Sequence record: OZ035817.1 | Source: Vectrevirus DIJ06P1 | DNA length: 44,766 bases | Direction: 5' to 3' (one strand) | Part shown: piece after piece, positions 2,681 to 21,980 of the stretch | Layout of the letters: each line of letters opens with the position of its first letter | Numbering within the stretch: the stretch's first letter is position 1 | The notes under the pieces: generated by a model | The model's input: only the letters and a program-made list of their open reading frames with translations | The model's database searches: none | Told to the model about the DNA's origin: nothing | Position numbers and translations under genes: made by a program

Positions 2681-2824
2681 AGGCCCAGATAATAAGAGAA
2701 AATAATAGGTAATATATAGGTTAACCTAGGTTATATAGGTATGCCTTAGTATGGGTGTACTCCTGTACACCCTATTCATTACTACCTTACTACCTTACTA
2801 TATTTACATAATAGGAGAGATACA

Positions 2825-3103
2825 ATGGCTAATGATTATAGTAGTCAACCATTAACAGGTAAGTCTAAGAGAAAGCAGGTACAACCTGTAAGTGAAGAAC
2901 TAATGCTTCCGGTAATCAAAAAAGAGGAAGCTAGTAAGAAAAGCAATGCTATTAATGATGCCACCAAATCAGGTAAACAGAAAGGGGCCATGGTGTGCCT
3001 TGAAGTGGAAGGTGGTGTATTGAAGATTGCTATCGCGGTTGATGGCAAAGAAGATTCAGAGTGGAAGTTAGTAACAGCGAAACCAACTGTTATCCCAGTT
3101 TAA
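2825..3103 (+). CDS. hypothetical protein (paralog A of tandem pair)
   Basis: 92-aa ORF; shares SGKQKGAMV...IA(I/V)A block with the next ORF. Confidence 0.5.
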   Translation: MANDYSSQPLTGKSKRKQVQPVSEELMLPVIKKEEASKKSNAINDATKSGKQKGAMVCLEVEGGVLKIAIAVDGKEDSEWKLVTAKPTVIPV

Positions 3104-3121
3104 GAGAAGGAGGAAGATTAC

Positions 3122-3415
3122 ATGGCTAAATATGGTACTACAGGTTCTGTTACTGGTCAGGCTTTTCGAGTAAAAGCAGTACAAACTATTGCAACGGCAA
3201 TCCCTATGCCTGTTGTTGCTGAAGCAGACCTTAAGAAGAAAGATCACCCTATCAACATCAAACACCTGTCAGGTAAGCAGAAAGGCGCAATGGTTGCTGT
3301 TGAGAGAGATGACACAACCATGCATATTGCTGTTGCACGTGGTAGTGAACCAACAGACTCTTGGGATGTAACTGGTATGGAAGAGGACGCTGTCACTCCA
3401 GCAGGTGGAGAATAA
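3122..3415 (+). CDS. hypothetical protein (paralog B of tandem pair)
   Basis: 97-aa ORF after GAAGGAGGAAG RBS; same SGKQKGAMV motif as 2825..3103. Confidence 0.5.
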   Translation: MAKYGTTGSVTGQAFRVKAVQTIATAIPMPVVAEADLKKKDHPINIKHLSGKQKGAMVAVERDDTTMHIAVARGSEPTDSWDVTGMEEDAVTPAGGE

Positions 3416-3759
3416 TGCTTAACAAATACTTCAAGCGTCGTGAGTTCGCTTGCCGTTGTGGTTGCGGTACATCCACCGTTGATGCTGAATTACTACAGGT
3501 AGTCACAGATGTGCGTGAGCACTTTGGTTCTCCTGTAGTTATCACTTCGGGGCACCGCTGTGCTAAGCACAATGCTAATGTAGGAGGAGCTAAGAACTCC
3601 ATGCATCTTACTGGTAAGGCTGCTGACATTAAGGTACGAGGCATCTTACCTTCTGATGTACATAAGTATCTTACTGATAAGTACCAAGGCAAATATGGGA
3701 TTGGTAAGTATAACTCCTTTACTCATATTGATGTACGTGACGGGTGTGCACGATGGTAG
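3415..3759 (+). CDS. peptidase M15-type peptidoglycan hydrolase (candidate endolysin)
   Basis: ATG overlaps the upstream stop (TAATG); SGHRCAKHNANVGGAKNSMHLTGKAADI fits the SG(Y/H)R...GG...S.H..G.A.D zinc-peptidase signature as I recall it. Confidence 0.65.
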   Translation: MLNKYFKRREFACRCGCGTSTVDAELLQVVTDVREHFGSPVVITSGHRCAKHNANVGGAKNSMHLTGKAADIKVRGILPSDVHKYLTDKYQGKYGIGKYNSFTHIDVRDGCARW

Positions 3760-3867
3760 GTTGTGTTGCATGGTGTGAACGCATGGTTGCTAAGGCTTCA
3801 GAGGAAGGCAACTATGAAGATTGGCAGAACTACTCAACTTTATTAGCTCAATGGAAAGGGAGATGCA

Positions 3868-4017
3868 ATGAAAAAGCTGTTCAAATCTAAGAAGGTTGTA
3901 GGTGCACTAGTTGCATTGGCAATTGCTCTTGTTTCTGTAGGTCTTGGTGTAGACCTTGGCTCTGGCACGGAATCCTCTGTGACAGACGTGGTCTGCCAAG
4001 TGATCACCTGTGAATAA
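3868..4017 (+). CDS. small membrane protein, 49 aa
   Basis: ATG at 3868; hydrophobic core VVGALVALAIALVSVGLGV; below the ORF-track size cutoff. Confidence 0.3.
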   Translation: MKKLFKSKKVVGALVALAIALVSVGLGVDLGSGTESSVTDVVCQVITCE

Positions 4018-4231
4018 GTTTCTAGAAGTGCTGGCAGGTCTTATTGGCCTGCTTGTCTCTGCTAAGAAGAAACAAGAAGAGAAGGAGGCACAAAGTGAAG
4101 CGAATCATGTTAGTGACAATCCTGCTGATTGGTTCGCTGACCACTTCCGGGTGTCAGCAGGCGTTACCAGAGAAAGCAATGGTGAAACCTCTGAGGCCGA
4201 CGCTGACGGAAGTTTACGAGGTAGACGATAA
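4010..4231 (+). CDS. putative i-spanin (Rz-like), unusually short
   Basis: N-terminal hydrophobic segment FLEVLAGLIGLLVSA then charged region; overlaps a lipoprotein ORF in another frame. Confidence 0.35.
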   Translation: MNKFLEVLAGLIGLLVSAKKKQEEKEAQSEANHVSDNPADWFADHFRVSAGVTRESNGETSEADADGSLRGRR

Positions 4232-4304
4232 GGTCTGCTTTAGTAAGCCTGACGCTACAAAATTAGGTTTGTATATTCTTTCGCTGGAACGCGGATATAA
4301 TTAA
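4095..4304 (+). CDS. putative o-spanin (Rz1-like lipoprotein)
   Basis: GTG at 4095 (or ATG at 4107) after GAAGGAGG; signal peptide plus lipobox LTTSGC; starts inside the 4010..4231 ORF in a different frame. Confidence 0.5.
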   Translation: MKRIMLVTILLIGSLTTSGCQQALPEKAMVKPLRPTLTEVYEVDDKVCFSKPDATKLGLYILSLERGYN

Positions 4305-4333
4305 TACATAGCTTTATGTATCAGTGTCTTACG

Positions 4334-4356
4334 ATTTACTGGACACTATAGAAGAG
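4334..4356 (+). promoter_or_regulatory. SP6-type phage RNAP promoter
   Basis: ATTTACTGGACACTATAGAAGAGG about 80 nt upstream of tailspike 1. Confidence 0.75.
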
Positions 4357-4435
4357 GTAAGATAGCGCCGTTCTTTTGAGCGGCCTATTACTAGCCAATC
4401 TTCATAGGGAGGGTTGGAAAGTAATAGGAGATAGC

Positions 4436-6334
4436 ATGGCTAAATTAACCAAACCTAATACTGAAGGAATCTTGCATAAAGGACAATCTTTGTATGAGTA
4501 CCTTGATGCGAGAGTTTTAACATCAAAGCCGTTTGGTGCTGTAGGTGACGCCACTACTGATGATACGGAGGTTATAGCTGCTTCATTAAACTCTCAGAAA
4601 GCTGTCACAATCTCAGACGGTGTATTCTCTAGCTCTGGTATTAATAGTAATTACTGTAACTTAGACGGTAGAGGTAGTGGGGTGCTAAGTCACCGTTCCA
4701 GTACAGGTAACTACTTAGTATTTAACAATCCACGTACAGGTCGCTTAAGTAATATTACGGTAGAAAGTAATAAGGCGACTGATACAACTCAGGGACAGCA
4801 GGTATCTCTTGCCGGTGGAAGTGATGTTACTGTAAGTGACGTTAACTTCTCAAACGTTAAAGGTACTGGTTTCAGTTTAATCGCATACCCTAATGATGCG
4901 CCACCTGATGGACTTATGATTAAAGGTATTCGAGGTAGCTATTCAGGCTATGCTACTAATAAGGCAGCTGGATGCGTACTTGCTGACTCCTCAGTTAACT
5001 CCCTCATAGATAACGTCATTGCTAAGAACTACCCTCAGTTCGGAGCAGTAGAGTTGAAAGGTACAGCCAGTTACAACATAGTCAGTAATGTTATAGGGGC
5101 AGATTGCCAGCATGTAACTTACAACGGCACTGAAGGGCCAATAGCTCCTTCTAATAACCTTATCAATGGGGTAGTGGCTAATAATCCTAAGTATGCAGCG
5201 GTTGTTGCAGGCAAAGGTAGTACGAACTTAATATCAGATGTGCTCGTAGATTACTCAACCTCTGATGCTAGGCAGGCTCATGGTGTTACAGTAGAGGGTT
5301 CTGATAACGTCATAAATAATGTGCTTATGTCAGGATGTGATGGTACTAACTCTTTAGGACAAGGGCAGACTGCTACAATTGCACGCTTTATAGGTACAGC
5401 TAATAACAACTATGCGTCTGTATTTCCTAGCTACAGTGCTACAGGTGTTATTACTTTCGAATCCGGCTCTACCCGTAACTTCGTAGAGGTAAAGCACCCT
5501 GGCAGGAGAAACGACCTTCTCAGTTCTGCTAGTACTATTGACGGTGCAGCTACTATTGACGGCACTAATAATAGTAACGTAGTGCACGCACCTGCCTTAG
5601 GGCAGTACATAGGTAGTATGTCAGGTAGGTTCGAATGGCGGATTAAGTCCATGTCACTCCCTTCAGGCGTTCTTACTTCTGCTGATAAGTACAGAATGCT
5701 TGGGGATGGTGCTGTATCATTAGCTTTAGGTGGGGGTACTTCTTCTCAAGTTCGCCTATTTACTTCTGATGGTACTTCTCGGACAGTGTCCCTCACCAAC
5801 GGTAACGTGCGTCTTTCTACCAGTAGCACAGGCTATTTGCAGTTAGGTGCTGATGCAATGACCCCAGACAGTACTGGTACATACGCATTAGGTTCCGCCA
5901 GCCGAGCATGGTCTGGCGGTTTTACTCAAGCAGCATTCACTGTTACCTCAGATGCTCGGTGTAAAACAGAACCTCTCACTATCTCAGATGCCTTACTGGA
6001 TGCTTGGTCTGAAGTTGACTTTGTGAAGTTTCAGTATTTGGATCGTGTTGAGGAGAAGGGTGCAGACTCAGCTAGATGGCACTTCGGTATCATCGCTCAG
6101 CGAGCTAAGGAGGCTTTCGAACGTCACGGTATAGATGCACATCGCTATGGCTTTTTGTGCTTCGACAGTTGGGATGATGTATACGAGGAAGATGCAGATG
6201 GCTCTCGTAAACTGATTACACCAGCAGGTTCCCGCTACGGTATTCGTTACGAGGAAGTGCTGATATTAGAGGCTGCGTTGATGCGGAGGACTATTAAGCG
6301 TATGCAGGAAGCACTAGCTTCCCTGCCTAAGTAA
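4436..6334 (+). CDS. tailspike 1, beta-helix with C-terminal intramolecular chaperone (S74-like) domain
   Basis: ATG at 4436 after GGAG; Gly/Ser/Thr/Asn-rich repeats typical of a right-handed beta-helix; C-terminus SDARCK...WHFGIIAQRAKEAF resembles auto-cleaving chaperone domains. The ORF-track start at 4376 is probably too early. Confidence 0.8.
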   Translation: MAKLTKPNTEGILHKGQSLYEYLDARVLTSKPFGAVGDATTDDTEVIAASLNSQKAVTISDGVFSSSGINSNYCNLDGRGSGVLSHRSSTGNYLVFNNPRTGRLSNITVESNKATDTTQGQQVSLAGGSDVTVSDVNFSNVKGTGFSLIAYPNDAPPDGLMIKGIRGSYSGYATNKAAGCVLADSSVNSLIDNVIAKNYPQFGAVELKGTASYNIVSNVIGADCQHVTYNGTEGPIAPSNNLINGVVANNPKYAAVVAGKGSTNLISDVLVDYSTSDARQAHGVTVEGSDNVINNVLMSGCDGTNSLGQGQTATIARFIGTANNNYASVFPSYSATGVITFESGSTRNFVEVKHPGRRNDLLSSASTIDGAATIDGTNNSNVVHAPALGQYIGSMSGRFEWRIKSMSLPSGVLTSADKYRMLGDGAVSLALGGGTSSQVRLFTSDGTSRTVSLTNGNVRLSTSSTGYLQLGADAMTPDSTGTYALGSASRAWSGGFTQAAFTVTSDARCKTEPLTISDALLDAWSEVDFVKFQYLDRVEEKGADSARWHFGIIAQRAKEAFERHGIDAHRYGFLCFDSWDDVYEEDADGSRKLITPAGSRYGIRYEEVLILEAALMRRTIKRMQEALASLPK

Positions 6335-6419
6335 GCAACAGGCAGTGCGTAAGCACTGCTTTTCACGCAACTTTTCTTAAAGGTTATCATGGTGGTAGCC
6401 TTTCAGAAAAGGAGGGTAC

Positions 6420-8471
6420 ATGCTACAAAGATTAGGGGCTTCCATGGTGAAGTTCAAGAGTAAACTCGCTGGTTCCATCGAACGTATACTCTCAGACAAG
6501 TTAATGGATACTGTAAGCGTTAAAGACTTTGGCGCTAAAGGAGATGGTATCACAGATGATACTGCTGCTTTCAAAGCAGCAATAACTTGTGGCGCATCTA
6601 GGGTATTAGTACCTGCAGGCAGGTATGTGATTACTGACACACTTTCTTTGCCATCTGGGGTCTGGTTATTTGGTGAAGGTGTTGACTATTGGGACACCTA
6701 TCGTCCAGACGAGGGTAGGCTTATTAAGTCATGGAGTAAAGGAACGCACCTTGTGTTCACTGGTAGTGGGTCTAAAAACAAGCAATTTCTTAATATCTCT
6801 AATGAACGCCCAACAAAGACAATAAATGGAGTAACTTGCTCTTTTACCGACTTCACTAATAGTGATGCACAAGTAACAGAACCTGCTACACCACGTAGTA
6901 TGAGTATTGCTGTATCAGTACAGGCAGGCAGTGGCTTACGCGATCTTCGTATTATGGTAAACAATGAAGGTATCTCTGGTTACAATGACTTTGTTTCTAC
7001 AAACAAGCTAGGTGACAACTGGGATATTGGGTTGCATGTATATGACAGCTCAGATGCTGTAATTGATAATGTGCAAGTTGTTGGCTATTGGAAGGTTGCA
7101 GGTACACTCTTAACGGAGAACGACGGCTCCATCACAATGCGTGGTAATCCAGAGAAGACACTATTTAATAAGTTCTACACTCAAGGTATCAGAGGTTTAC
7201 TTATTAGGAATAGCCCGCAAGTAGATGTAGTATCTCAAGAGTCAGCAACCAAGTTAACCATTAAAGCGAATGCTACTTCCCGTATATTAGCACAAAATGG
7301 TTTTCGAGTAGCAGGTAGTACTACGATACATAGATGGACTAGTGTTACAAGACAAGGAGACACTTATGTATTAGATGGCATCACACCTGAGTTACCTTCT
7401 GCTTCTGGCCTCGGGGTTGTTCGTTTCCCATCTATGGGTAACAATTGGTCTGGTACAGTGTTCAACAATACTGTTGCTGTGTCCTTTGAGCACTCATCCG
7501 GTAGAACCTCAAGACAACTAGGACTTCCTGTATCTTTTGCTATGGAGATTGATGGCTTCCCTTGTCGTAACCTCAAATTCATAAACTTCAAGGCACAGAC
7601 TTCTTACGATGAAGGAAATACATTGTTTGGTGATATGCGCGATGCCAAGTTTGTGGCTAGCGAGTTCGAGAATGGTAGGCTGATTGCGTATGATTTGTCT
7701 CAGACTCAAGGGTATACTGGTAATATGCGGTCTGCTGTGTCTGACATGCAGTTTCATTCCACTAATATTGAAGGCTTCACACCACGTGATTTCTTCTATG
7801 ACCTAGGACATTTTCCTACTTCTTATACTGATGGTTCTTTTATCATGAAGCATTGGCGAGAAAAGGATTTACAGGTACAATGGTATAATGGTAAAGCATT
7901 CATCCATCTACATGAAGATGATGGCCGTGTAACACTTACCAGTAAAGGCGGTCTAGATTTGTATAACTTTAGTTCTACAAAAGACGTGACGTTCAAGGGT
8001 CGCAACTTTGTATTCAAAAACGATGCAAGTGAAGACGTATTGAAGTGGTTTGGCGGTTCAGGGAATATCTCTACGAAAGGAAACATCTCGCCTATGGTAG
8101 ATGGGGTTGCCTCTCTGGGTACAAATTCCTATCGCTGGGGCGCAGTGCATTCAGTAAATGGGACGTTACAAACCTCTGACGGTAGGCTAAAGGAGATCCA
8201 CGATATTAAACAAGAAGAACTTGATGCGGGGATTGCATTATCAGCAAGTCTAATCAAGTATCGTTGGTATGGAGAAGAAAAGTTCCACTTTGGTTGTATT
8301 GCCCAAGAGGTAATGTTAATCATGGAGAAACATAATCTAGACCCATTACAGTATGGAATGGTGCAGTATGATGAAGAGGCAGACATCTTTAGTGTAAACT
8401 ATGCTGAATTGAACAGCTTCTGCATCGCAGCTCTGTCTAGGAGGTTGAATGCCATTAATCAAATCAGTTAA
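6420..8471 (+). CDS. tailspike 2, pectate-lyase-like beta-helix with C-terminal intramolecular chaperone domain
   Basis: ATG after AAAGGAGGG; VKDFGAKGDGITDDTAAFKAAI is a pectate-lyase-superfamily N-terminal motif; C-terminus SDGRLK...FHFGCIAQEV parallels tailspike 1. Confidence 0.8.
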   Translation: MLQRLGASMVKFKSKLAGSIERILSDKLMDTVSVKDFGAKGDGITDDTAAFKAAITCGASRVLVPAGRYVITDTLSLPSGVWLFGEGVDYWDTYRPDEGRLIKSWSKGTHLVFTGSGSKNKQFLNISNERPTKTINGVTCSFTDFTNSDAQVTEPATPRSMSIAVSVQAGSGLRDLRIMVNNEGISGYNDFVSTNKLGDNWDIGLHVYDSSDAVIDNVQVVGYWKVAGTLLTENDGSITMRGNPEKTLFNKFYTQGIRGLLIRNSPQVDVVSQESATKLTIKANATSRILAQNGFRVAGSTTIHRWTSVTRQGDTYVLDGITPELPSASGLGVVRFPSMGNNWSGTVFNNTVAVSFEHSSGRTSRQLGLPVSFAMEIDGFPCRNLKFINFKAQTSYDEGNTLFGDMRDAKFVASEFENGRLIAYDLSQTQGYTGNMRSAVSDMQFHSTNIEGFTPRDFFYDLGHFPTSYTDGSFIMKHWREKDLQVQWYNGKAFIHLHEDDGRVTLTSKGGLDLYNFSSTKDVTFKGRNFVFKNDASEDVLKWFGGSGNISTKGNISPMVDGVASLGTNSYRWGAVHSVNGTLQTSDGRLKEIHDIKQEELDAGIALSASLIKYRWYGEEKFHFGCIAQEVMLIMEKHNLDPLQYGMVQYDEEADIFSVNYAELNSFCIAALSRRLNAINQIS

Positions 8472-8667
8472 GCAAAGTGCTGTACGCCAGAACACAGAAG
8501 AGCTTATTCAATCAGGACGTGACCCTAAGCAAGCCTATGCGATTGCCAAGGTATACAACGTCGTGCTATGAAGAAACTTTCTGCATCTTCTGCGTAAGCA
8601 GGTTAATATCTTAGTATAAACAAGGGCAGACTTAGGTTTGTCCTTAGTGTATTCCAAAGGAGGTAAC

Positions 8668-8796
8668 ATGCTGAAAGATGGTTGGGTTTCATATGACCCT
8701 ACAGACCCTAAGAATTGGCTACAGGTTATCGCTATAGCTTGTGCAGGTAGCCTATTGGCTGCCCTGATGTATTCATTATGGATGTACACAAAGTAA
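8668..8796 (+). CDS. small membrane protein, 42 aa
   Basis: Strong RBS AAGGAGG 5 nt before ATG; one hydrophobic helix; last ORF before the non-coding terminus region. Confidence 0.3.
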   Translation: MLKDGWVSYDPTDPKNWLQVIAIACAGSLLAALMYSLWMYTK

Positions 8797-9461
8797 CCAA
8801 AGTCAAAATTTTGATGTAGGCGTGTGTCAGCTCTCTCGCCCTCGCCCTCGCCGGGTTGCCCCCATAGGGTGGCCTGAGGGAATCCGTCGAAGACGGGTAG
8901 GGCTGATGTACTCCTTCGCTAGTACAAGGGAGGCGGGGAATGCCTAGGAAGCGCTAGGGCACGCCTTAGTATTGGACAAGGTGATTGCCTTAGTGAAGCC
9001 TCTTAGTACATTCCTGAGGCCATTCAGGGCGTTTATGAGGCATTGACAGGGTGGATGGGTGTGGGCTATCTGTTCGTTTCGCTACGCTTCACTCACTGCT
9101 CCTCACTTCGTTCGTCGCTGCGGTAGCCTGATGTGTACCTTAGGTTATTACTTGATGGATAGCTTAGGTTATAGCTTAGTGACCTACCTTAGTTATAACC
9201 TTAGTGCATAGCTTAGTATCAGCTTAGTAGTGTACCTTAGTAAGTCTTAGTGTCTTCTCTTAGTGATTGCACATGCAAGCATGTAAGATGCCATTAGGTC
9301 GCGGTCGGTAGACCGCTAAAGAAGGAGAGTAGTAATAAGATGCAGTAGGAGGAACACCAGAAGCCTCGCCAACCTAGCCTATCCTAGCTCTGTATCTATT
9401 GCTTTTCCTTAGTCTCACATGATAGACAACCTATCTTATTCCTAGTGATGATAACTTAGTG

Positions 9462-9490
9462 TTGACAAGATAATCTTAGTGTAATACTAT
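9462..9490 (+). promoter_or_regulatory. candidate host sigma70 early promoter
   Basis: TTGACA, 17-nt spacer, TACTAT; upstream of the first early ORF. Confidence 0.45.
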
Positions 9491-9562
9491 GCATCACGTA
9501 GGCGGTGCTGAGGCACCTAGTAGCCAGCTAGTAAGGCATACGAAGAGACTAGCGCTTACATT

Positions 9563-9575: not shown

Positions 9576-9633
9576 TTGCTTAGTGTAACCTATGTATGCC
9601 GTGGTTAATTACTTATTGAATGAGGGATTAACT

Positions 9634-12218: not shown

Positions 12219-14846
12219 ATGCAAGACTTACACGCTATTCAACTTCAACTTGAAGAAGAAATGTTTAACGGCGGTATCCGTCGCTTTGAAGCGGACCAAC
12301 AGCGCCAGATTGCATCCGGTAATGAATCAGACACGGCATGGAATCGCCGCTTATTGTCCGAGTTAATTGCGCCAATGGCTGAAGGTATTCAGGCATACAA
12401 GGAAGAGTATGAAGGTAAAAGAGGCCGTGCACCGCGTGCATTAGCTTTCATTAACTGCGTAGAAAATGAAGTGGCAGCGTATATCACGATGAAAATCGTT
12501 ATGGATATGCTGAACACGGATGTAACCTTGCAGGCTATAGCCATGAATGTAGCTGACCGCATTGAGGACCAAGTACGTTTTAGCAAGCTGGAAGGTCACG
12601 CCGCCAAATACTTTGAAAAAGTTAAGAAGTCACTTAAGGCAAGTAAGACTAAATCATATCGCCATGCGCACAACGTAGCGGTAGTGGCTGAGAAGTCAGT
12701 AGCTGACCGTGACGCTGATTTCTCCCGCTGGGAGGCATGGCCTAAAGACACCTTGCTGCAAATTGGGATGACCTTGCTTGAAATCTTAGAGAATAGCGTA
12801 TTCTTCAACGGGCAACCTGTCTTCCTCCGCACCTTGCGCACTAATGGCGGCAAACATGGTGTTTACTACCTACAGACTAGTGAACACGTAGGTGAGTGGA
12901 TAACTGCATTTAAAGAACATGTAGCGCAACTTAGTCCAGCCTATGCACCTTGCGTTATTCCTCCGCGTCCGTGGGTATCACCCTTTAACGGTGGGTTTCA
13001 TACTGAGAAAGTAGCAAGCCGTATTCGTCTGGTAAAAGGCAATCGTGAGCACGTCCGCAAGCTGACCAAAAAGCAAATGCCAGCGGTTTACAAGGCTGTT
13101 AACGCTTTGCAGGCGACTAAGTGGCAGGTTAATAAAGAGGTTTTACAGGTTGTGGAGGACGTTATACGTCTAGACCTCGGCTATGGTGTACCTTCCTTTA
13201 AACCACTCATCGACCGTGAGAACAAGCCAGCTAATCCGGTGCCGTTAGAGTTCCAGCACCTGCGAGGCCGTGAACTGAAAGAAATGCTTACGCCGGAACA
13301 ATGGCAAGCCTTTATCAACTGGAAAGGTGAATGTACTAAGCTGTACACCGCTGAAACTAAGCGCGGAAGCAAATCGGCGGCAACCGTTCGCATGGTCGGT
13401 CAGGCCCGTAAATATAGCCAGTTCGACGCAATCTACTTCGTGTATGCACTGGACAGCCGCAGCCGTGTATACGCGCAATCTAGCACACTCTCACCGCAAT
13501 CAAATGACTTGGGCAAGGCCTTGCTCCGTTTTACCGAAGGGCAGCGTCTTGATAGCGCTGAGGCGCTTAAGTGGTTTTTGGTGAACGGGGCTAATAACTG
13601 GGGTTGGGATAAGAAAACTTTTGACGTGCGCACTGCTAACGTGCTGGATAGTGAATTTCAAGACATGTGCCGCGACATTGCAGCCAACCCGCTGACCTTC
13701 ACTCAATGGGTGAATGCTGATTCCCCTTATGGCTTCCTTGCATGGTGCTTTGAATATGCGCGTTATCTGGATGCACTGGACGAAGGAACGCAAGACCAAT
13801 TCATGACGCACCTACCCGTCCATCAAGATGGTAGTTGCTCTGGTATCCAGCACTATAGCGCGATGTTACGAGATGAAGTAGGTGCGAAAGCAGTAAACCT
13901 TAAGCCTTCTGACTCCCCTCAAGATATTTATGGCGCGGTTGCGCAGGTTGTTATCCAGAAGAATTACGCCTACATGAATGCAGACGACGCAGTGACTTTC
14001 ACATCCGGAAGCGTCACACTTACAGGTGCAGAACTGCGTAGCATGGCTAGTGCGTGGGATATGATAGGAATCACTCGCGGATTGACCAAAAAGCCCGTAA
14101 TGACACTACCTTATGGCAGCACACGTCTAACCTGCCGTGAATCAGTGATTGATTATATCGTTGATTTAGAAGAAAAAGAGGCCCAACGGGCTATTGCGGA
14201 AGGGCGTACCGCCAATCCTGTACACCCTTTTGATAATGACCGTAAAGACAGCCTGACACCTAGCGCAGCTTATAACTATATGACAGCTTTAATCTGGCCT
14301 TCTATTTCGGAAGTGGTTAAAGCTCCTATAGTGGCAATGAAAATGATTCGTCAGCTTGCCCGTTTCGCAGCTAAAAGGAATGAAGGCTTAGAGTATACCC
14401 TGCCTACTGGCTTCATCTTGCAACAAAAGATTATGGCTACTGATATGCTCCGCGTATCTACTTGCTTGATGGGAGAAATCAAGATGAGTCTACAGATTGA
14501 AACGGACGTAGTAGATGAAACGGCAATGATGGGCGCTGCTGCTCCTAACTTTGTGCATGGTCATGATGCCAGTCACCTTATCTTAACGGTCTGCGACCTT
14601 GTTGATAAAGGGATTACATCTATCGCAGTAATTCATGATTCTTTTGGCACTCATGCAGGCCGTACAGCCGATCTACGCAACAGCTTAAGGGCAGAAATGG
14701 TGAAAATGTACCAAGGCCGTAATGCACTGCAAAGCCTGCTAGATGAGCACGAAGAACGCTGGTTAGTTGATACAGGAATCCAAGTACCAGAGCAAGGGGA
14801 GTTTGACCTTAACGAAATCTTAGTTTCAGACTATTGCTTCGCATAA
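12219..14846 (+). CDS. single-subunit DNA-directed RNA polymerase, SP6 type
   Basis: 875 aa; hallmark blocks [24 protein letters not shown] and IHDSFGTH; very close to SP6 RNAP as I recall it, consistent with the SP6-type promoters. Confidence 0.95.
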
Positions 14847-14919: not shown

Positions 14920-14935
14920 GTCTCACACGTGAGAC
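14920..14935. repeat. palindrome GTCTCA-CACG-TGAGAC, copy a
   Basis: One of six copies of GTCTCA-N4-TGAGAC; abuts the promoter at 14938. Confidence 0.7.
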
Positions 14936-14937
14936 TT

Positions 14938-14960
14938 ATTTACCGGACACTATAGGATAA
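14938..14960 (+). promoter_or_regulatory. SP6-type phage RNAP promoter (first of tandem pair)
   Basis: ATTTACCGGACACTATAGGATAA. Confidence 0.7.
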
Positions 14961-15100
14961 CCGTCGGAGACGGAAAGAGAAGGGAAGATAAGGATATAAA
15001 GGAAGTAATAGGTATTAAAGGTTATATAGGTTTACCTAGGAATACCTATTACCTTCTTCCTTCCTCTTATTACTACTTAGAGGAAGGTCAGACCTAAGTT
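14956..15100. other. AT-rich region with purine tract and 11-bp inverted repeat between tandem promoters (putative primary origin or RNA processing site)
   Basis: TAATAGGTATT (15006-15016) and AATACCTATTA (15041-15051) inverted; purine run 14966-15010; placement mirrors the T7 origin downstream of gene 1. Confidence 0.4.
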
Positions 15101-15116
15101 GTCTCACATGTGAGAC
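15101..15116. repeat. palindrome GTCTCA-CATG-TGAGAC, copy b
   Basis: Perfect 16-bp palindrome just before the promoter at 15122. Confidence 0.7.
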
Positions 15117-15121
15117 TTCGT

Positions 15122-15143
15122 ATTTACCGGACAGTATAGATAA
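15122..15143 (+). promoter_or_regulatory. SP6-type phage RNAP promoter, variant (second of tandem pair)
   Basis: ATTTACCGGACAGTATAGATAA; CAGTATAG instead of CACTATAG. Confidence 0.5.
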
Positions 15144-15302
15144 GACTAACTTACTTTGGAGATTTAACCATGCGTAACTTTGAGAAGATGACCCGTAAAG
15201 CTAACCGTTTTGACATGGAAGAAGGGGCAGACGAAAGGCAAGAAGCTGAATAAACCTGTCCGTGACCGTGCATCTAAACGCGCAGCATGGGAGTTCTGAG
15301 TT

Positions 15303-15521
15303 ATGGCTAAATACAGAATCAAGACCTGTTTAAATAGTCACGGGCAAGAGTTCTACGTAGTGCAACGTAAAGTATTAGGCTTAATATGGGTCACTTGTAT
15401 GATGCCTATTGGCTATACTGATACAGAGGCTATCTTCTGCACCGAAAGGGATGCAAAGAAGTTTATCTCTAAGCGTAGAAAAGCTGACTCTTACCAACCT
15501 AGAATTATTAAGGTGAACTAA
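15303..15521 (+). CDS. hypothetical protein
   Basis: 72-aa ORF; stop overlaps the primase-helicase start. Confidence 0.45.
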   Translation: MAKYRIKTCLNSHGQEFYVVQRKVLGLIWVTCMMPIGYTDTEAIFCTERDAKKFISKRRKADSYQPRIIKVN

Positions 15522-17509
15522 TGGCTATTATTAATAACATCCCGTGCCCTGCCTGCCAGAAGAATGGGCACGATAAATCCGGCAATCATCTCATGATATT
15601 TGATGATGGTGCTGGCTATTGTAACCGTGGTCACTTCCATGATAATGGGAAGCCCTATTACCATAAGCCAGAGGGTGGTATCGAGATAACCGAATTGCCT
15701 ATTACTGGCAATATCAAATATACACCTTCTCAATTCAAAGAAATGGAGAAGGAAGGGAAGATAAGCGACCCTAAGCTACGCGCCATCGCTCTTGGTGGTA
15801 TGCGTATGAAAGACCGTTGGGAGGTCATGAATGAGCAAGAAAGGGCAGAGCAAGAAGCAGAGTGGAAACTTGATGTTGAATGGTTCCTCACGCTTAAGCG
15901 TAAGAACCTTGTTTCCAGACACATTCGCGGCGACATTTGCGCATTGTATGATGTACGTGTTGGGCACGATGAAGAGGGTAGAGTCTCACGGCATTACTAT
16001 CCACGCTTCGAAAAAGGTGAGCTAGTAGGCGCTAAGTGTCGTACCTTACCTAAAGATTTCAAGTTTGGACACTTAGGTAAACTCTTTGGTATGCAAGATC
16101 TTTTCGGTATGAATATTTTGTCTCACGTGTTAGACAAGGGAAGACGAAAGGATTGCTTGCTTATTGTGGGTGGGGAACTGGATGCACTAGCAGCGCAGCA
16201 GATGCTCCTTGATTCTGCCAAGGGTACTAAGTGGGAAGGTCAACCTTACCATGTATGGTCTGTTAACAAAGGGGAGTCTTGCCTTGAAGAGATTGTGCAG
16301 AACCGTGAACACATCGCCCAATTCAAGAAGATTATTTGGGGCTTCGATGGGGATGAGGTAGGGCAGAAGCAGAACCAGCAAGCGGCTCGCCTGTTCCCTG
16401 GCAAATCCTATATCCTTGAATATCCCTCTGGTTGCAAAGATGCTAACAAGGCATTGATGGCTGGCAAGGCTAAAGAATTTGTAGATGCATGGTTTAATGC
16501 CAAGTCATCTGATGAAGTCTTTGGTAGCCAGATTAAATCTATCGCATCTCAAAGGGATAAGCTCAAGGCTGCACGTCCAGAGCAAGGACTATCATGGCCT
16601 TGGCCTAAGCTGAACAAGGTAACGCTAGGTATTCGTAAGAACCAGCTTATCATTGTAGGTGCAGGGTCTGGTGTAGGTAAGACTGAGTTCCTTCGTGAAG
16701 TAGTTAAGCACCTCATTGAAGAACACGGTGAATCTGTAGGCATCATTTCTACAGAAGACCCGATGGTCAAGGTGTCCCGTGCTTTTATCGGCAAGTGGAT
16801 TGATAAGCGTATTGAGTTACCGCCAACCAACGACCCGAAAGAAGACGGATACCGTGAGGTGTTCGACTACACCGAGGAAGAAGCTAACGCCGCCATTGAT
16901 TATGTAGCTGATACAGGTAAGCTGTTTGTAGCTGACCTAGAGGGTGACTATTCGATGGAAAAGGTAGAGCAAACTTGCCTAGAGTTTGAGGCTATGGGCA
17001 TTTCTAATATCATCATTGATAACTTAACGGGGATTAAATTAGATGAGCGTGCTTTTGGTGGGAAGGTTGGTGCACTTGATGAATGCGTCAAGCGGATTGG
17101 TACTATCAAAGACCGACACCCGGTTACTATATTCCTTGTATCACACCTTACACGTCCTCCGGCAAACCGTACCCAACACGAAGAAGGTGGCGAAGTTATC
17201 CTTTCTGACTTCCGAGGCTCAGGAGCTATCGGATTCTGGGCATCTTACGCCTTGGGGATTGAGCGTAATACAAGAGCTGAAACGCTTGACGAAAGGACTA
17301 CCACGTACATCTCATGTGTCAAAGACCGCGACCAAGGTATCTACACTGGAACCAAGGTCATGCTTAAGGGTGACATTCAAACCGGACGTTTAATGGAACC
17401 ACAAGCCCGTACTAAGTCATTTGATACAGGTGAAGCAAGGCAACAAGAAGTACCAGATTTACCGGACACTATAGAAGAGACTAACTTCGATGAAGAAAGT
17501 GAGTTCTGA
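15521..17509 (+). CDS. DNA primase/helicase (T7 gp4-like)
   Basis: N-terminal Zn finger CPACQ...CNRGH; Walker A GAGSGVGKTEF; acidic C-terminal tail ending DEESEF. Confidence 0.9.
   Translation: MAIINNIPCPACQKNGHDKSGNHLMIFDDGAGYCNRGHFHDNGKPYYHKPEGGIEITELPITGNIKYTPSQFKEMEKEGKISDPKLRAIALGGMRMKDRWEVMNEQERAEQEAEWKLDVEWFLTLKRKNLVSRHIRGDICALYDVRVGHDEEGRVSRHYYPRFEKGELVGAKCRTLPKDFKFGHLGKLFGMQDLFGMNILSHVLDKGRRKDCLLIVGGELDALAAQQMLLDSAKGTKWEGQPYHVWSVNKGESCLEEIVQNREHIAQFKKIIWGFDGDEVGQKQNQQAARLFPGKSYILEYPSGCKDANKALMAGKAKEFVDAWFNAKSSDEVFGSQIKSIASQRDKLKAARPEQGLSWPWPKLNKVTLGIRKNQLIIVGAGSGVGKTEFLREVVKHLIEEHGESVGIISTEDPMVKVSRAFIGKWIDKRIELPPTNDPKEDGYREVFDYTEEEANAAIDYVADTGKLFVADLEGDYSMEKVEQTCLEFEAMGISNIIIDNLTGIKLDERAFGGKVGALDECVKRIGTIKDRHPVTIFLVSHLTRPPANRTQHEEGGEVILSDFRGSGAIGFWASYALGIERNTRAETLDERTTTYISCVKDRDQGIYTGTKVMLKGDIQTGRLMEPQARTKSFDTGEARQQEVPDLPDTIEETNFDEESEF
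17457..17480 (+). promoter_or_regulatory. SP6-type phage RNAP promoter inside the 3' end of the primase-helicase gene
   Basis: ATTTACCGGACACTATAGAAGAGA, full consensus match. Confidence 0.6.
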
Positions 17510-17530
17510 TTAGTGTATTTATCAGGGCTT

Positions 17531-17546
17531 GTCTCACATGTGAGAC
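17531..17546. repeat. palindrome GTCTCA-CATG-TGAGAC, copy c
   Basis: Flanks extend the stem (CTTGTCTCACATGTGAGACAGG); same extended sequence as copy f. Confidence 0.7.
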
Positions 17547-17585
17547 AGGCTCTTATTAAGTACATTAAATAACTGGAGATTGATT

Positions 17586-18269
17586 ATGTATAACTTAGTG
17601 TTGAATGTAGGTGACTTTGTACGCAACATCAAGAAAGATTCAAGTCGCTATCTTTGCCGTGGTGTTGTAACCTTTGTAGGTGAGAACCTGTATTATGTAG
17701 AATATCGCAGTGGTGTTAAGCAATATTACCACAAGAAGACAGCACATAAATATCTTGAAAAGATTGTAGAGATAAACAATCAATGTAAGTGCATACATGA
17801 TGAGGTTTGCGATAAATGTGCTCGCCAGATGCTTAAGAATTTCCTAGCTCCTCTTTATTATGGTGCTGGTCCTCAAACACTAGCAGAGTACATGGCAGAA
17901 AAGAAAACCACACTCAAGAAAGAGCGTCGCAATGTAATCACTGGTAAGACTCAAAGTGAGATGATTAAGCAATGTGGCACTGCATTAGGTGTTACACAGT
18001 TTAATACTCGTGCATTGGGTAAATCCACAGGACAAGCTATGGTAAAGATTGGAGAAGCCATGATGCATCCAAATGTACCTGTGCGAATCATGGATGTTGA
18101 CCATGCAATCACAGAACAAGGTACGCAACGACGTGTAATTAATAAGCATTTTGCCGACACTATAGAAGGTATTATTCGTAAGCAAGGGTTGAAAGGTCTT
18201 CACATCTTGAATGATGAAGAGTTACTGTACCTCCCTATTGTTACTGAAGAAACCTACGTGAATATCTAA
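17586..18269 (+). CDS. hypothetical protein
   Basis: ATG at 17586 after GGAGAT; 227 aa; AT-rich. Confidence 0.5.
   Translation: MYNLVLNVGDFVRNIKKDSSRYLCRGVVTFVGENLYYVEYRSGVKQYYHKKTAHKYLEKIVEINNQCKCIHDEVCDKCARQMLKNFLAPLYYGAGPQTLAEYMAEKKTTLKKERRNVITGKTQSEMIKQCGTALGVTQFNTRALGKSTGQAMVKIGEAMMHPNVPVRIMDVDHAITEQGTQRRVINKHFADTIEGIIRKQGLKGLHILNDEELLYLPIVTEETYVNI
18148..18170 (+). promoter_or_regulatory. weak phage-promoter-like sequence (intragenic)
   Basis: ATTTTGCCGACACTATAGAAGGT, 14 of 17 upstream positions match consensus. Confidence 0.3.
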
Positions 18270-18279
18270 GGAGTTAATC

Positions 18280-18498
18280 ATGACTAAAGTATTAATTTAT
18301 ATGCGTGGACCTCATAAATGCTATGCAGTTGTAGCACCAAATGGTGTTAAGCCTTATAGTACTTCAAAAGGATTGGCATTAATAGGTGCTAGTAGTAGTG
18401 CAAGTTTCCAAATGGAACTTTTTGGTCATTGGAATGAAAGGCAATTCCGTGAGGATTTTAAAGTCATTGGCAGCTTCATGGTGAAACATGCAGAATAA
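18280..18498 (+). CDS. hypothetical protein
   Basis: 72-aa ORF. Confidence 0.45.
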   Translation: MTKVLIYMRGPHKCYAVVAPNGVKPYSTSKGLALIGASSSASFQMELFGHWNERQFREDFKVIGSFMVKHAE

Positions 18499-18674
18499 AC
18501 ATAGTCTTAAAATGTTCGATGGTCATGAAGACCTGCAAGCCAAGATTACTAACCAAGCCTTCATGTTTGCACAGTTAACTATGGCTGAAGCAAAGAAGAA
18601 TAGCCTGACGCGTGAACAGGTTATCAAGGAAAGTGAAGTGAAACGTAAGATTCGCAGTCGATAAGTCAAGGGTT

Positions 18675-18690
18675 GTCTCACACGTGAGAC
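18675..18690. repeat. palindrome GTCTCA-CACG-TGAGAC, copy d
   Basis: Intergenic, upstream of the DNA polymerase gene. Confidence 0.7.
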
Positions 18691-18815
18691 AGCCTTTCAT
18701 CATATTGATTGGAGGTGCATTATGCCACGTGATTATGATTCTGATTGGGACTATTATGACTCAATGAATCCAAAACCCGAACGTTCAGATGATTACTACG
18801 AAACAGAGGCAATGT

Positions 18816-21362
18816 ATGAAGACTATTGATTGGAAGAAGGAGGCAGAAGGTCGTATCCTCGTGATGGATGCGGAAGCTAAAGGACTCCTTGACGCTATCC
18901 GATATAGACACCGTGAAGATGTGCATATCATTTGCTGCATGGATTTGCTTACTACCGAGGAGTTTCTCTTCTTTGACCCGTATGAGATGCGTGACCCTGA
19001 AGCAAGAGAACGCCTGAAGGAATGGGAAGGTCATCAAGATGGAACCTTGGTTGACGGTGTTAACTTCCTGAAGCACTGTGAGGCTATTGTGTCGCAGAAC
19101 TTCCTAGGGTATGACGGTCTTCTCTTTGAGAAAGCATTCCCTGATATTTGGAAAGGCTTTAACTATACCGAGAAGCGCGGTAAGGGCAGACTCCGTGCTG
19201 ACCTGTGTCCTATCCGTGTTGTAGATACGCTGGTGATGAGTCGTCTGCTAAACCCAGATAGACGCCTTCCTCCGCAAGCATATGCCAAAGGCATGGGTAA
19301 CGTCGCCCCTCACTCAATTGAGGCGCACGGCATCCGTATAGGCCGCTATAAACCAGAGAACGAGGACTGGTCTAAACTAACTGACCACATGGTTCACCGT
19401 GTACGTGAAGACGTGGCAATTGGTCGTGACCTTTTCCTATGGCTTTACAACGGAGAGTGGACGGAGCACAAACGCCGTGGCGTGAATAAACGTACTGGCC
19501 TAGGTATTGAGACAGCCTTCCACATGGAGTCCATTGTGGCGCTGGAGATGAGCCGTCAGGCCGAGCGCGGGTTCCGTCTGGACATCGACAAGGCTTTGGC
19601 CCGATGCGAAGAATTGGACGCTAAAATTGACGAGACAGTCGCAGCGTTCCGCCCTCACATGCCTATGCGTATCAAGTCTAAACCTTTTAAACCGGAAGAA
19701 AAGAATGAAGTATGCCAACGCGCAAATGAGTATGGAGTTAGCAACAATATACCTACTGTCCTTGACCCCTCACACTTTCTTCATGCCGAGAGACGAGGAG
19801 ATCGCAAGACAGTATGGAGTGTCACTACTAAGTCTGGTGATTGGTCGGCTAGTGTCAAGAAAGACTTCCCTCACCTTAGAGGAAACCGTAATGACACGCC
19901 AAGCATCAAGTGGATTGGCGCTTACTCGCCTGTTACTTTCGAAGAGATTCCCTTGGGTAACAGGGATACAGTTAAGCAAGTGCTCTATGATTATGGATGG
20001 AAAGGTGTTGAATTTAACGATACCGAGCAAGCTCATCTCGATGAACACGGAGTGTTACCCAAACCTTGGAGTGGTAAGATAAATGAAAAGTCCCTTACTT
20101 TATGGCAAGAAAGAGCCGCACGTGAAGGTAAAACAGTCCCTGATTGGTGCTTGGGTATCGCTGCATGGTACATACTCGTATCCCGTCGTGGTCAGATACT
20201 CAACCGTGGTGACGTTGAAGCCTTCAACGAGAAGGGAACGTGGCCCTCGCAGGCTGGTGTACGAAAGTGTCGCGGCCTTGTACCTGTAGCATTCAACAAG
20301 GAGCTAGGAATCAATGCGCAGCAATACTACGAGAGGTATGGATATTGGCCTACGTCTGACAAAGATGACGGGGAGTGGCGTGTTCCAGCTGTTGCTATTA
20401 GTATTGGCACTTCTACGTTCCGTATGCGTCATCGTAACGTGGTTAATATTCCTGCCCGTGGCTTGTATCCTTTACGTGATTTATTCATAGCAGGGAAAGG
20501 CAAGCTAATCCTTGGTTGTGACGGTGCAGGTCTTGAACTGCGTGTCCTGTCTCACTTCATGAATGACCCTGAGTACCAAGAGATTGTACTGCACGGTGAT
20601 ATTCATACGCATAACCAGATGAAGGCTGGTCTTCCTAAGCGTGATATGGCGAAGACGTTTATATACGCCTTCCTCTATGGCTCTGGTATAGCCAACCTTG
20701 CAGCAGTATGTGGTGTTACTGAGGCGGAAATGAAGGAAGTTGTGGCAAGATTCGAGATTGAACTGCCGTCTCTTGCACGTCTTCGTGAGAATGTTATCGC
20801 ACAAGGTAACAAGTTTGGCTACCTGCAAGCACCTGATGGGCATTGGGGTCGCATCCGCATGTCTGGTGGTGAACTTAAAGAGCACACGATGCTTAACGTA
20901 TTACTCCAGATGACTGGCTCTTTGTGTATGAAATATGCATTAGTAAAGGCATTTGCAGTAATGCGCAAGGAAGGTGTAGCCTTGGATGCTATGGGAAATC
21001 CTTGTGGTGTGGCTAACGTGCATGATGAAATCCAGATGGAAGTTCCTGAAGAGGAGGTCTTGTATCTTAACTACGACCTACCTTTCACCTTAGATGGGTT
21101 CGAAACAGAGAAGGCTGCCGTGAAAGCAGTGTTCGATGCAGAGGAGAAACGTGTTCATGTGGATTCTGAAGGACGTATGTGGTCTGCTGCAAACCTCGTC
21201 AGTGTTGATGCTGATGCTGGTGTATTGCATTGCCAGCGCCGTTATCACCGTGCAGGGCATATCATTGCCGACGCCATGATTTGGGCTGGTCAGTATCTGA
21301 AGATGCGTTGCCCGATGGCAGGAGAATATAAGATTGGCACAAGTTGGAAGGAAACACACTGA
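18816..21362 (+). CDS. DNA polymerase (T7 gp5-like, family A)
   Basis: ATG at 18816 after AGAGG (ORF-track start 18789 also possible); blocks GLELRVLSHF and KTFIYAFLYGSG match family A motifs A and B. Confidence 0.9.
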   Translation: MKTIDWKKEAEGRILVMDAEAKGLLDAIRYRHREDVHIICCMDLLTTEEFLFFDPYEMRDPEARERLKEWEGHQDGTLVDGVNFLKHCEAIVSQNFLGYDGLLFEKAFPDIWKGFNYTEKRGKGRLRADLCPIRVVDTLVMSRLLNPDRRLPPQAYAKGMGNVAPHSIEAHGIRIGRYKPENEDWSKLTDHMVHRVREDVAIGRDLFLWLYNGEWTEHKRRGVNKRTGLGIETAFHMESIVALEMSRQAERGFRLDIDKALARCEELDAKIDETVAAFRPHMPMRIKSKPFKPEEKNEVCQRANEYGVSNNIPTVLDPSHFLHAERRGDRKTVWSVTTKSGDWSASVKKDFPHLRGNRNDTPSIKWIGAYSPVTFEEIPLGNRDTVKQVLYDYGWKGVEFNDTEQAHLDEHGVLPKPWSGKINEKSLTLWQERAAREGKTVPDWCLGIAAWYILVSRRGQILNRGDVEAFNEKGTWPSQAGVRKCRGLVPVAFNKELGINAQQYYERYGYWPTSDKDDGEWRVPAVAISIGTSTFRMRHRNVVNIPARGLYPLRDLFIAGKGKLILGCDGAGLELRVLSHFMNDPEYQEIVLHGDIHTHNQMKAGLPKRDMAKTFIYAFLYGSGIANLAAVCGVTEAEMKEVVARFEIELPSLARLRENVIAQGNKFGYLQAPDGHWGRIRMSGGELKEHTMLNVLLQMTGSLCMKYALVKAFAVMRKEGVALDAMGNPCGVANVHDEIQMEVPEEEVLYLNYDLPFTLDGFETEKAAVKAVFDAEEKRVHVDSEGRMWSAANLVSVDADAGVLHCQRRYHRAGHIIADAMIWAGQYLKMRCPMAGEYKIGTSWKETH

Positions 21363-21478
21363 TGGATAGGCTTGACATTGTTTGCCTGTTCTTCACTTTC
21401 TTTCTTACACTCCTTATGCTTGCTTGTTATGGGAGTGTGAGACTAGATGTACCTGATGAAGAAGAGGGTTACGACTAA
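21362..21478 (+). CDS. tiny membrane peptide, 38 aa
   Basis: ATG overlaps the polymerase stop (TGATG); hydrophobic core; below the ORF-track cutoff. Confidence 0.25.
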   Translation: MDRLDIVCLFFTFFLTLLMLACYGSVRLDVPDEEEGYD

Positions 21479-21576
21479 TGCAAACTGCTTTTATTATTCT
21501 TGGTATCGTATTATTTATGGTAGTACTCTGGGCCTTCTCTGGCATTGACCCGGATTGTGATGGTAACTACGACTGA
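21478..21576 (+). CDS. tiny membrane peptide, 32 aa
   Basis: ATG overlaps the preceding stop (TAATG); hydrophobic core IILGIVLFMVVLWAF. Confidence 0.25.
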   Translation: MQTAFIILGIVLFMVVLWAFSGIDPDCDGNYD

Positions 21577-21633
21577 GTTATACTCAAGGTCACTTACGAG
21601 TGGCCTTTATGAATAACTTAACTGGAGAGTATT

Positions 21634-21894
21634 ATGATTAAATCACAGAAGTATTTCTCAACTAAAGATCGTAAGGTAGGTTTTGAAATCAAAGTTTGGG
21701 AAGACGGACACATTACTATTATTTACGAAGGTAAAGGTTCTAATGGTATGATGCTACGTAGATGCCGTACATTCACAAAGAAAGAATGTATGCATATGTC
21801 TGAATGCATGTTTCTTTACATCATTGCTGATGATATTAAAGGTATGAAGCTAATTGTATCTCTACCTTTAATACCTAAATCTTTGTTAGGTTGA
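21634..21894 (+). CDS. hypothetical protein
   Basis: 86-aa ORF, AT-rich. Confidence 0.45.
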   Translation: MIKSQKYFSTKDRKVGFEIKVWEDGHITIIYEGKGSNGMMLRRCRTFTKKECMHMSECMFLYIIADDIKGMKLIVSLPLIPKSLLG

Positions 21895-21918
21895 TTTACT
21901 GGACACTATAGAAGGAAA
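21894..21918 (+). promoter_or_regulatory. SP6-type phage RNAP promoter
   Basis: ATTTACTGGACACTATAGAAGGAAAG; followed by a TAGGT-repeat leader. Confidence 0.75.
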
Positions 21919-21980
21919 GCCTAGGTAATCTAGGTTTATAAGGTAGTATGGGTAATTAAGTAAATATAGGAGATATAAAT

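Follow-up and report, generated by a model that had tools for sequence, protein, structure and literature searches.

Replication of phage T7 starts at the tandem promoters phi1.1A/phi1.1B, and phiOR and phi6.5 are possible secondary origins (PMC8373140). Three promoter-attached leaders of another phage, Vectrevirus DIJ06P1 (record OZ035817.1), were compared with these origins in this work. The window, meaning the whole stretch of 44,766 bp that was analyzed, was a circularly rotated Vectrevirus genome (K1-5-like; Autographiviridae, Molineuxvirinae) with 95-97% identity to K1-5 and its relatives (position 2400 of the window is equivalent to K1-5 position 37335), and all its large open reading frames (ORFs) were on the + strand. 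Each of the three leaders contained an array of short direct repeats of the TAGGT type; the leaders and their promoters are called here module 1 (after the large terminase gene), module 2 (between the RNA polymerase gene and gene 1.1) and module 3 (after the DNA polymerase gene). The T7 origin contains a primase site, phiOL is reportedly also classed as a replication promoter by Dunn and Studier (1983), and we know of no initiator protein in T7-like phages, which are thought to need none.

The arrays were confirmed as a real feature: they were periodic and conserved, followed promoters, had minimal duplex stability and occupied the positions of the T7 origins in the gene order. The three modules may be the SP6/K1-5-group version of T7-type transcription-started replication origins, a reading that we favor but rate somewhat below an even chance, because the start of DNA synthesis at the modules is a point that we infer by analogy, because the properties of the modules would also suit long 5' untranslated regions (UTRs), and because the T7 model needs no periodic unit. 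The features of the three modules were the following:

2653-2675, + strand: module 1 promoter, TTAATTACTGGACACTATAG, with the +1 G at 2675, directly 3' of the large terminase gene (722-2659, assigned from the K1-5 annotation).
2687-2746, + strand: module 1 array, with TAGGT units at 2706, 2717, 2727 and 2736; 73% AT.
2748-2776, + strand: module 1 hairpin, 12 bp in its extended form, with the core GGGTGTAC-TCCT-GTACACCC at 2753-2772.
2779-2807, + strand: module 1 pyrimidine arm, TTAC/CCTTAC units with an 8-9 nt period, which correspond to the CTACCTTACTA repeat.
14920-14935, + strand: palindrome GTCTCACACGTGAGAC, 16 nt, just 5' of promoter A of module 2; a minimal copy of an RNase III-like family.
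14933-14955, + strand: module 2 promoter A, with the +1 G at 14955; the RNA polymerase gene (12219-14846) and its terminator-like hairpin lie before it.
14961-14973, + strand: 5' hairpin CCGTC-GGA-GACGG, 5 bp, whose third pair was G:C, A:T, T:A or C:G in relatives.
14975-15040, + strand: module 2 array, with seven AGG at 14981, 14991, 15000, 15010, 15019, 15028 and 15038.
14999-15058, + strand: long hairpin of 17 bp, array units AAGGAAGTAATAGGTATT with the CCT-rich arm AATACCTATTACCTTCTT.
15059-15087, + strand: second hairpin, CCTTCCTCT / AGAGGAAGG.
15101-15116, + strand: palindrome GTCTCACATGTGAGAC, just 5' of promoter B, in the position equivalent to that of T7 R1.1 relative to phi1.1B.
15117-15139, + strand: module 2 promoter B, the variant GGACAGTATAG, with +1 at 15139; the gene 1.1 homologue follows at 15170.
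21889-21911, + strand: module 3 promoter, with the +1 G at 21911; the DNA polymerase gene (18789-21362) and one small ORF precede it.
21920-21980, + strand: module 3 array, with units at 21922, 21931, 21940 (AAGGT) and 21949 (TGGGT) and an exact 9-nt period.

The common denominator of the three leaders was a (T/A)AGG(T/A) unit repeated every 9-11 nt: four units in module 1, seven in module 2 (AGG spacing of 10, 9, 10, 9, 9 and 10 nt) and four in module 3, that is, at least three regularly spaced direct repeats in each. The longer strings that the original prediction had described as shared by the leaders did recur, but each of them in two leaders only: ATATAGGT was common to modules 1 and 2 (2714, 2733 and 15024, its only + strand copies in the window), as was AATAGGTA (2704 and 15007), while CCTAGGT was present in modules 1 and 3 (2725 and 21920), module 2 having CCTAGGA at 15035 instead. 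The direct repeat reported for the module 1 leader was found as CTACCTTACTA at 2782 and 2790 (two copies, 0.01 expected per strand). Clusters of at least three TAGGT within 45 nt numbered four, against 0.08 in dinucleotide shuffles of the whole genome. When each AT-rich module was shuffled separately with its dinucleotides kept, WAGGT was in excess in the three modules (10 copies vs. approximately 2.9 expected, P = 0.0002), and the summed length of the periodic AGG chains (14) was reached by none of 5000 shuffles. Since the arrays beat shuffles of the AT-rich modules themselves, the effect of composition that the original prediction had left open was excluded, and motif frequency was above expectation. 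An unbiased scan for any 4-mer with at least four copies at 8-11 nt spacing returned one coding site and, otherwise, only the TAGG/AGGT array and the TTAC pyrimidine arm of module 1. A periodic TGGC chain (40748-40778, four copies, 8-11 nt) and a cluster of three TAGGT (43369-43397) were both located inside a 1102-codon ORF (40338-43646), and were probably coding-sequence effects.

The promoter core GGACACTATAG had 12 matches in the window at a maximum of one mismatch, all on the + strand (0.94 expected). Those of the array promoters (2665-2675, 14945-14955 and 21901-21911, with +1 at 2675, 14955 and 21911) confirmed on the + strand the three promoters that had been proposed, and arrays followed only these three of the 12. 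Two promoter-like variants were also observed: CGACACTATAG at 18155-18165, within the ORF 17586-18269 and adjoining a stability minimum at about 18262, and TGACACTATAG at 26928-26938, ahead of the ORF at 27027.

Duplex stability was calculated for the whole genome from nearest-neighbor energies in sliding segments of 60 bp. The three least stable segments of the window started at 21922, 2689 and 14984, and corresponded to modules 3, 1 and 2 in rank order (68-73% AT in the modules vs. 55% genome-wide). In T7 (L112), which served as a control, the four least stable segments started at 417, 5931, 18561 and 39248, directly 3' of phiOL (405), phi1.1B (5923), phi6.5 (18545) and phiOR (39229). The segments of modules 3, 1 and 2 of SP6 (L114; 12570, 37892 and 6156) were within the five least stable of that genome, and the lowest stability in Vibrio phage VEN was that of the segment after the terminase gene, and in Pseudomonas phage Nerthus that of the segment after the RNA polymerase gene. 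The arrays were thus the least stable DNA of the genome, in positions corresponding to those of the T7 origins, which the original prediction had missed. They were also poor in C: the 60-nt stretches of the sense strand with the fewest C in the genome were those of module 2, purine-rich and nearly C-free (zero C at 14972-15031), and of module 3 (one C in 60 nt of its array).

A promoter for the phage's own polymerase, directing transcription into the element, and an easily melted AT-rich segment directly 3' of it were present in all three modules, and the T7 gene order was shared by module 2 (gene 1 to 1.1) and module 1 (after gene 19). Module 2 resembled the T7 primary origin in that tandem phage promoters separate gene 1.1 from the RNA polymerase gene, in the extreme stability minimum directly 3' of a promoter, and in having a hairpin of the RNase III type just upstream of the second promoter. 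The gene 1.1 homologue belonged to Pfam Phage_1_1 (E 8e-16), and its start was that of T7 gp1.1 (MRNFEKMT). There were also differences: the AT-rich element of module 2 lay between the two promoters, whereas that of T7 lies after the second, and it was an element of approximately 175 nt with seven regular AGG units and then a complementary CCT arm, whereas T7 has only a loose recurrence of TTAAG. Module 1, like phiOR, followed the large terminase gene (gene 19 in T7), and the modules shared with phiOR and phi6.5 the succession of promoter and stability minimum. PhiOR is located approximately 0.7 kb from the T7 right end, and module 1 approximately 6.8 kb from the right end of its genome, because tailspike genes follow. 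Module 3 lay in the interval from the DNA polymerase gene to the exonuclease gene, while phi6.5 follows the exonuclease gene, and the T7 secondary origins lack a periodic unit.

In T7 (L112), TTAAG/TTAAAG recurred every 9-13 nt or so in the primary-origin leader (5931-6005) and in the phiOL leader (405-480), and TTAAG was also found just upstream of the ribosome-binding sites of late genes (ACTTTAAGGAG); this recurrence may be a loose counterpart of the arrays. The gene 1.1 homologue of the window (15170-15253, MRNFEKMTRK...) was shortened to 27 codons by an extra G at approximately 15221-15224, in GAAGGGGCAG, while its relatives had GAAGGGCAG and an ORF of 42 codons; the frameshift was real or else a sequencing error in the homopolymer.

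If the modules are origins, the phage RNA polymerase would initiate at the promoter and transcribe into the AT-rich, C-poor and most easily melted array, and the transcript or the opened bubble would be passed within the array to the phage DNA polymerase and primase-helicase. By analogy, module 2 would correspond to the T7 primary origin (phi1.1A/phi1.1B) and module 1 to the secondary origin phiOR, and module 3 would be a further secondary origin. According to a passage in PMC4837284, Dobbins et al. put the bidirectional origin of SP6 at gene 14, the DNA polymerase gene; module 3 was located 0.4 kb downstream of this gene, and the detrended purine-excess minimum of SP6 (12506) adjoined the module 3 promoter (12549). 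The gene 14 placement and the purine minimum lend weak support to the origin reading. Plain GC skew was positive everywhere in the window, with no turning point, and in both SP6 and the window the minimum of detrended cumulative GC skew was found 0.4-0.8 kb beyond module 2.

Several points weigh against origins at the modules. The skew methods failed the T7 control (GC-skew minimum at 9.5 kb, not 5.9 kb), and skew evidence is therefore weak. The position of module 3 matched that of phi6.5 only loosely, the exact gene order not being shared. The recognition site of the SP6 primase is reportedly 5'-GCA-3' (Tseng, Frick and Richardson 2000), a rule that applies to the SP6 primase only; GCA was absent from the + strand of the modules and present once on their - strand, with approximately eight expected per strand from the genome-wide rate. 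R-loop propensity (RNA:DNA minus DNA:DNA energy, the hybrid parameters reportedly being the Sugimoto 1995 set) ranked the module 2 region second in the genome, but the known T7 origins did not score, and this propensity was rejected as a general origin mark. Low duplex stability is also expected of a long unstructured 5' UTR, and the T7 regions are 5' UTRs as well. The T7 origin model consists of a promoter and AT-rich DNA, and does not predict a conserved, periodic, lineage-specific unit. Experimental replication-initiation data for SP6-like phages were not found in the sources searched. The full texts searched did not describe an SP6-like origin either, though Scholl 2004 and Dobbins 2004 may mention module 2 as a likely origin, and in the GenBank records listed no origin or repeat was annotated at the arrays; the annotation that overlapped the module 2 match was confined to genes, ribosome-binding sites or a terminator.

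Relatives were retrieved from IMG/VR via the flanking proteins. Arrays were present in 50 of 50 related loci reaching the leaders, SP6 among them: module 1 in 13/13 loci reaching it, module 3 in 13/13 loci including SP6, and module 2 in 24/24 SP6-like loci reaching it, whose RNA polymerase C-termini were 71-100% identical. Several of these 24 loci differed in promoter specificity, but their unit was still TAGGT. Copy number (4-8 units) and spacers varied, and spacing peaked sharply at 9-10 nt in all three modules. The TAGG cores of module 1 were more conserved than its spacers (94% vs. 81% in 12 relatives), while the cores and spacers of module 3 were conserved alike, the module being approximately 95% identical throughout. 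Upstream of the module 3 promoter (21634-21894 in the window; 260 nt in L016-L028), the sequence was variable and in some relatives unrelated; given this contrast with the promoter and leader, module 3 is a recombination boundary.

Distant phages (Colwellvirinae and metagenomic; polymerase C-terminus 35-49% identical) also had an array after the polymerase gene, in which the period was kept but the unit differed: TAGAGC, TAAGAG, YAGTAGC, TAGGA, TAAGC or ATAGTAAGCT. Of two complete genomes examined, that of Nerthus had YAGTAGC arrays after its polymerase and terminase genes, which contained 9 of the 16 genomic + strand copies of YAGTAGC and followed two of nine promoters. VEN had TAGAG(C) arrays after the same two genes, and the one after the terminase gene was followed by a complementary CTCTA arm. 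The unit was uniform within a genome and different between lineages, with TAGGT in all enterobacterial Molineuxvirinae. In one distant relative, at L065:2609-2675, 3' of the RNA polymerase gene, six perfect tandem copies of ATAGTAAGCT were followed by a CT-rich arm, and this array is a recently expanded version of the array type.

Expansions of this kind, together with the variable copy number, would be expected if the arrays were functionless minisatellites generated by slippage and tolerated in long non-coding leaders. The (GA)n and (TA)n tracts of the same leaders also varied in length, and the module 1 leaders were slippage-prone. The ribosome-binding site of gp41 (window 2811-2824) lay within such a (GA)n tract, variable among relatives (AGGAGAGAGAGAGAGAATG), with variants at L013:1480-1503, L010:1485-1503 and L009:1420-1440, the last of these loci also having a (TA)n expansion inside the array. 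Slippage alone is very unlikely to account for the arrays, which occurred in every relative examined and kept their positions across two subfamilies in spite of the 35-49% identity of the RNA polymerase C-termini; module 3 was highly conserved even where the sequence upstream of it was unrelated, and distant arrays of one genome shared their unit, which is not expected from independent slippage.

That the unit is constant within a genome and specific to a lineage points to a reader that co-evolves with it or, at the minimum, to selection on it; such a reader is suspected. It would not be a host factor, because T7 and K1-5 infect a common host but have different units. The same two facts, and the greater conservation of the module 1 cores, would suit short iterons bound by a phage-encoded, sequence-specific protein which regulates the three promoters or transcripts apart from replication, for example as a roadblock or a timing switch; ribbon-helix-helix proteins (omega, MetJ) read tandem units of 7-8 bp. 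We consider this quite unlikely. For the flanking genes, sequence searches gave neither a DNA-binding assignment in Pfam or PHROG nor relatives in the PDB, and the cores of module 3 were no more conserved than its spacers. Promoter specificity varied within the TAGGT group while the unit was constant, and the promoter-reading elements of the polymerase are therefore not the reader. For the protein-binding sites suggested by the original prediction, the conserved and regularly spaced repeat was thus confirmed, but not the protein.

Of the iterons that had also been suggested, the regular and conserved layout stood, but not the dimensions: the core was 5 nt with a 9-10 nt period, whereas iterons have 17-22 bp at approximately 22 bp. 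Like plasmid and lambdoid iterons and the oriC 13-mers, the arrays were lineage-specific, regular direct repeats in or beside the most easily melted DNA; unlike iterons, they were strongly strand-biased and transcribed, and neither a Rep-like nor another DNA-binding domain of a cognate initiator was found in the flanking genes. A further proposal combines such units with the origin reading: the 9-10 nt units would be a lineage-specific origin code, licensing transcription-started replication at 2-3 of approximately 12 promoters via a dedicated factor. This factor might be a small protein of the phage, or a part of the RNA polymerase or primase-helicase surface that does not read promoters. This code is a long shot. 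Two other roles for the unit were rejected: that of a promoter decoy (TATAGG resembles promoter positions -4 to +2), since the unit stayed TAGGT where promoter specificity differed, and that of a leader for CsrA/RsmA, a host protein which is conserved in gamma-proteobacteria and reads several GGA motifs, mostly in hairpin loops, since most units were GGT (63% in module 2) and the units of the Vibrio and Pseudomonas phages lacked GGA.

Each module had its own order of leader elements. Module 1 consisted of promoter, array, hairpin, CCTTAC arm and gp41 ribosome-binding site, and module 3 of promoter, 5' hairpin (8 bp, 21917-21937, formed by the first two units), two further units and ribosome-binding site. 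The GTGTAC hairpin that had been proposed in module 1 was present and conserved, with compensatory changes in L014 and L015, and two stretches were complementary to the pyrimidine arm of this module, namely the AGG units and the 5' GAAGGAAGG of the transcript. A hairpin comparable to the long hairpin of module 2 was found in 25 of 25 distinct relatives despite changed sequence, and module 2 was the only module that folded better than shuffles (z -2.2); the folds of modules 1 and 3 were unremarkable (z +0.2 and -1.2). As a general account of the leaders, the suggested conserved 5' UTR structures were not supported. In 25 relatives the + strand of module 2 usually, though not always, folded a few kcal/mol better than the - strand, a difference too small to assign the structure to RNA. 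An Rfam scan of the whole window returned zero matches reaching the gathering score.

The arrays could instead act in RNA as 5' UTR elements, degenerate tandem copies of the ribosome-binding context (ATAGG followed by AG). Ribosomes could use them as standby sites, they could be enhancers, or, jointly with the CCU-rich arms, they could determine how the leader folds and how stable the mRNA is. The arrays were always on the sense strand and downstream of a promoter. TAGGAG was the ribosome-binding core of 8 of 43 genes, with A(A/T)TAGGAGA in the first genes after promoters, and ribosome-binding units were in the register of the repeats, in the case of ATAGGAGAT in the 9-nt register of module 3 and in the case of TGGAGAT with the TAGAGCTAC units of VEN. 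The T7 origin leader likewise repeats TTAAG, its own context ahead of ribosome-binding sites. Compensatory changes occurred in the conserved hairpins, GAAGGAAGG can pair with the CCUUAC arm (three sequences had changed on both sides at one pair), and the array after the RNA polymerase gene was the direct leader of a small ORF in VEN and Nerthus. Like the enhancer of the T7 gene 10 leader (epsilon, TTAACTTTA) and standby sites, the arrays were short motifs ahead of ribosome-binding sites in several leaders of one phage, and their unit had ATAGG in common with the ATAGGAG ribosome-binding sites of this phage.

A role as 5' UTR elements is possible but unlikely. Unlike the gene 10 enhancer and standby sites, the arrays had 4-8 tandem copies, were present at module 2, and were absent from the most highly expressed late genes; the leader of the major capsid gene had no array, and high expression is therefore not what the arrays follow. 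Module 2 of the K1-5 and SP6 groups had neither an ORF nor an adjoining ribosome-binding site of its own; between it and gene 1.1 were hairpins, the palindrome and a second promoter, and an effect on translation in cis is therefore excluded as its explanation. A position directly 5' of a ribosome-binding site, as for standby sites, was found in modules 1 and 3 and not in module 2, and the match of AGGU to 16S was of 4 nt only. The YAGTAGC units of Nerthus and the TAGAGC units of VEN cannot pair with the anti-Shine-Dalgarno sequence, which was rejected as the reader for this reason, and the unremarkable fold scores of modules 1 and 3 are a further point against this role.

The long hairpin of module 2 also bears on RNase III. 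T7 RNase III sites (R0.3 to R18.5) are, like the arrays, conserved non-coding leader elements adjacent to promoters and contain AAGG and CCTT, and the interval from phi1.1A to phi1.1B contains R1.1 (coordinates reportedly those of Dunn and Studier, 1983). The 17-bp helix of module 2, its z score and its counterparts in all relatives would be in keeping with arrays that are processing sites of this kind. The likelier substrate was found elsewhere: the 16-nt palindrome GTCTCACATGTGAGAC had eight copies in the window against 0.23 expected, as follows:

17531-17546, 18675-18690 and 40291-40306: full copies, whose flanks matched the T7 RNase III consensus CTCAAGG...CTTTATGAT.
14920, 15101 and 23778: minimal copies, the first two just 5' of promoters A and B.
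9412 and 16120: copies with two mismatches.

The full copies folded into a 13-bp upper stem, an internal loop and a lower stem of 8-10 bp (z -3.7 to -7.2), and are probably the RNase III sites of this phage. SP6-group relatives had GTCCAACGTGTTGGAC at the same positions, and Nerthus and VEN had GTCTCACACTGTGAGAC. The T7-type consensus and two-stem architecture were therefore in the palindromes and not in the TAGGT arrays, from which the consensus flanks (CTCAAGG ... CCTTTATGAT) were absent; the R1.1 position 5' of promoter B was taken by a minimal palindrome; and modules 1 and 3 had no long duplex, their local hairpins being of 8-12 bp with unremarkable z scores, short of two helical turns. 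That the arrays themselves are RNase III sites is extremely unlikely. The physical ends of the genome were predicted near window positions 9200-9450 (by offset from the K1-5 alignment), where the degenerate palindrome copy at 9412 is located.

Replication initiation has been mapped for T7, and for the SP6/K1-5 group, the source of SP6 RNA polymerase and of several therapeutic capsule-specific phages, no such mapping was found in the literature searched. The T7-type origins themselves are known, but periodic, lineage-specific arrays across Molineuxvirinae and Colwellvirinae may be new: arrays of this type were not described in the full texts searched, a search that covered neither Scholl 2004 nor Dobbins 2004. 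Three candidate origins have been located precisely, and the combination of a promoter with the genome's stability minimum after it can serve as a simple predictor, which recovers the known origins of T7. If the periodic units do not matter, the arrays remain a conserved leader feature left unmarked by annotators. If they do, they would help to explain why only some promoters act as origins, and would provide a sequence marker of origins across two subfamilies of Autographiviridae and parts for orthogonal replicons built on phage replisomes. The origin code, if true, would add an initiator-like layer of origin specificity to T7-like phages, and would account for a unit that is uniform in each genome but not the same in Molineuxvirinae, Colwellvirinae and T7.

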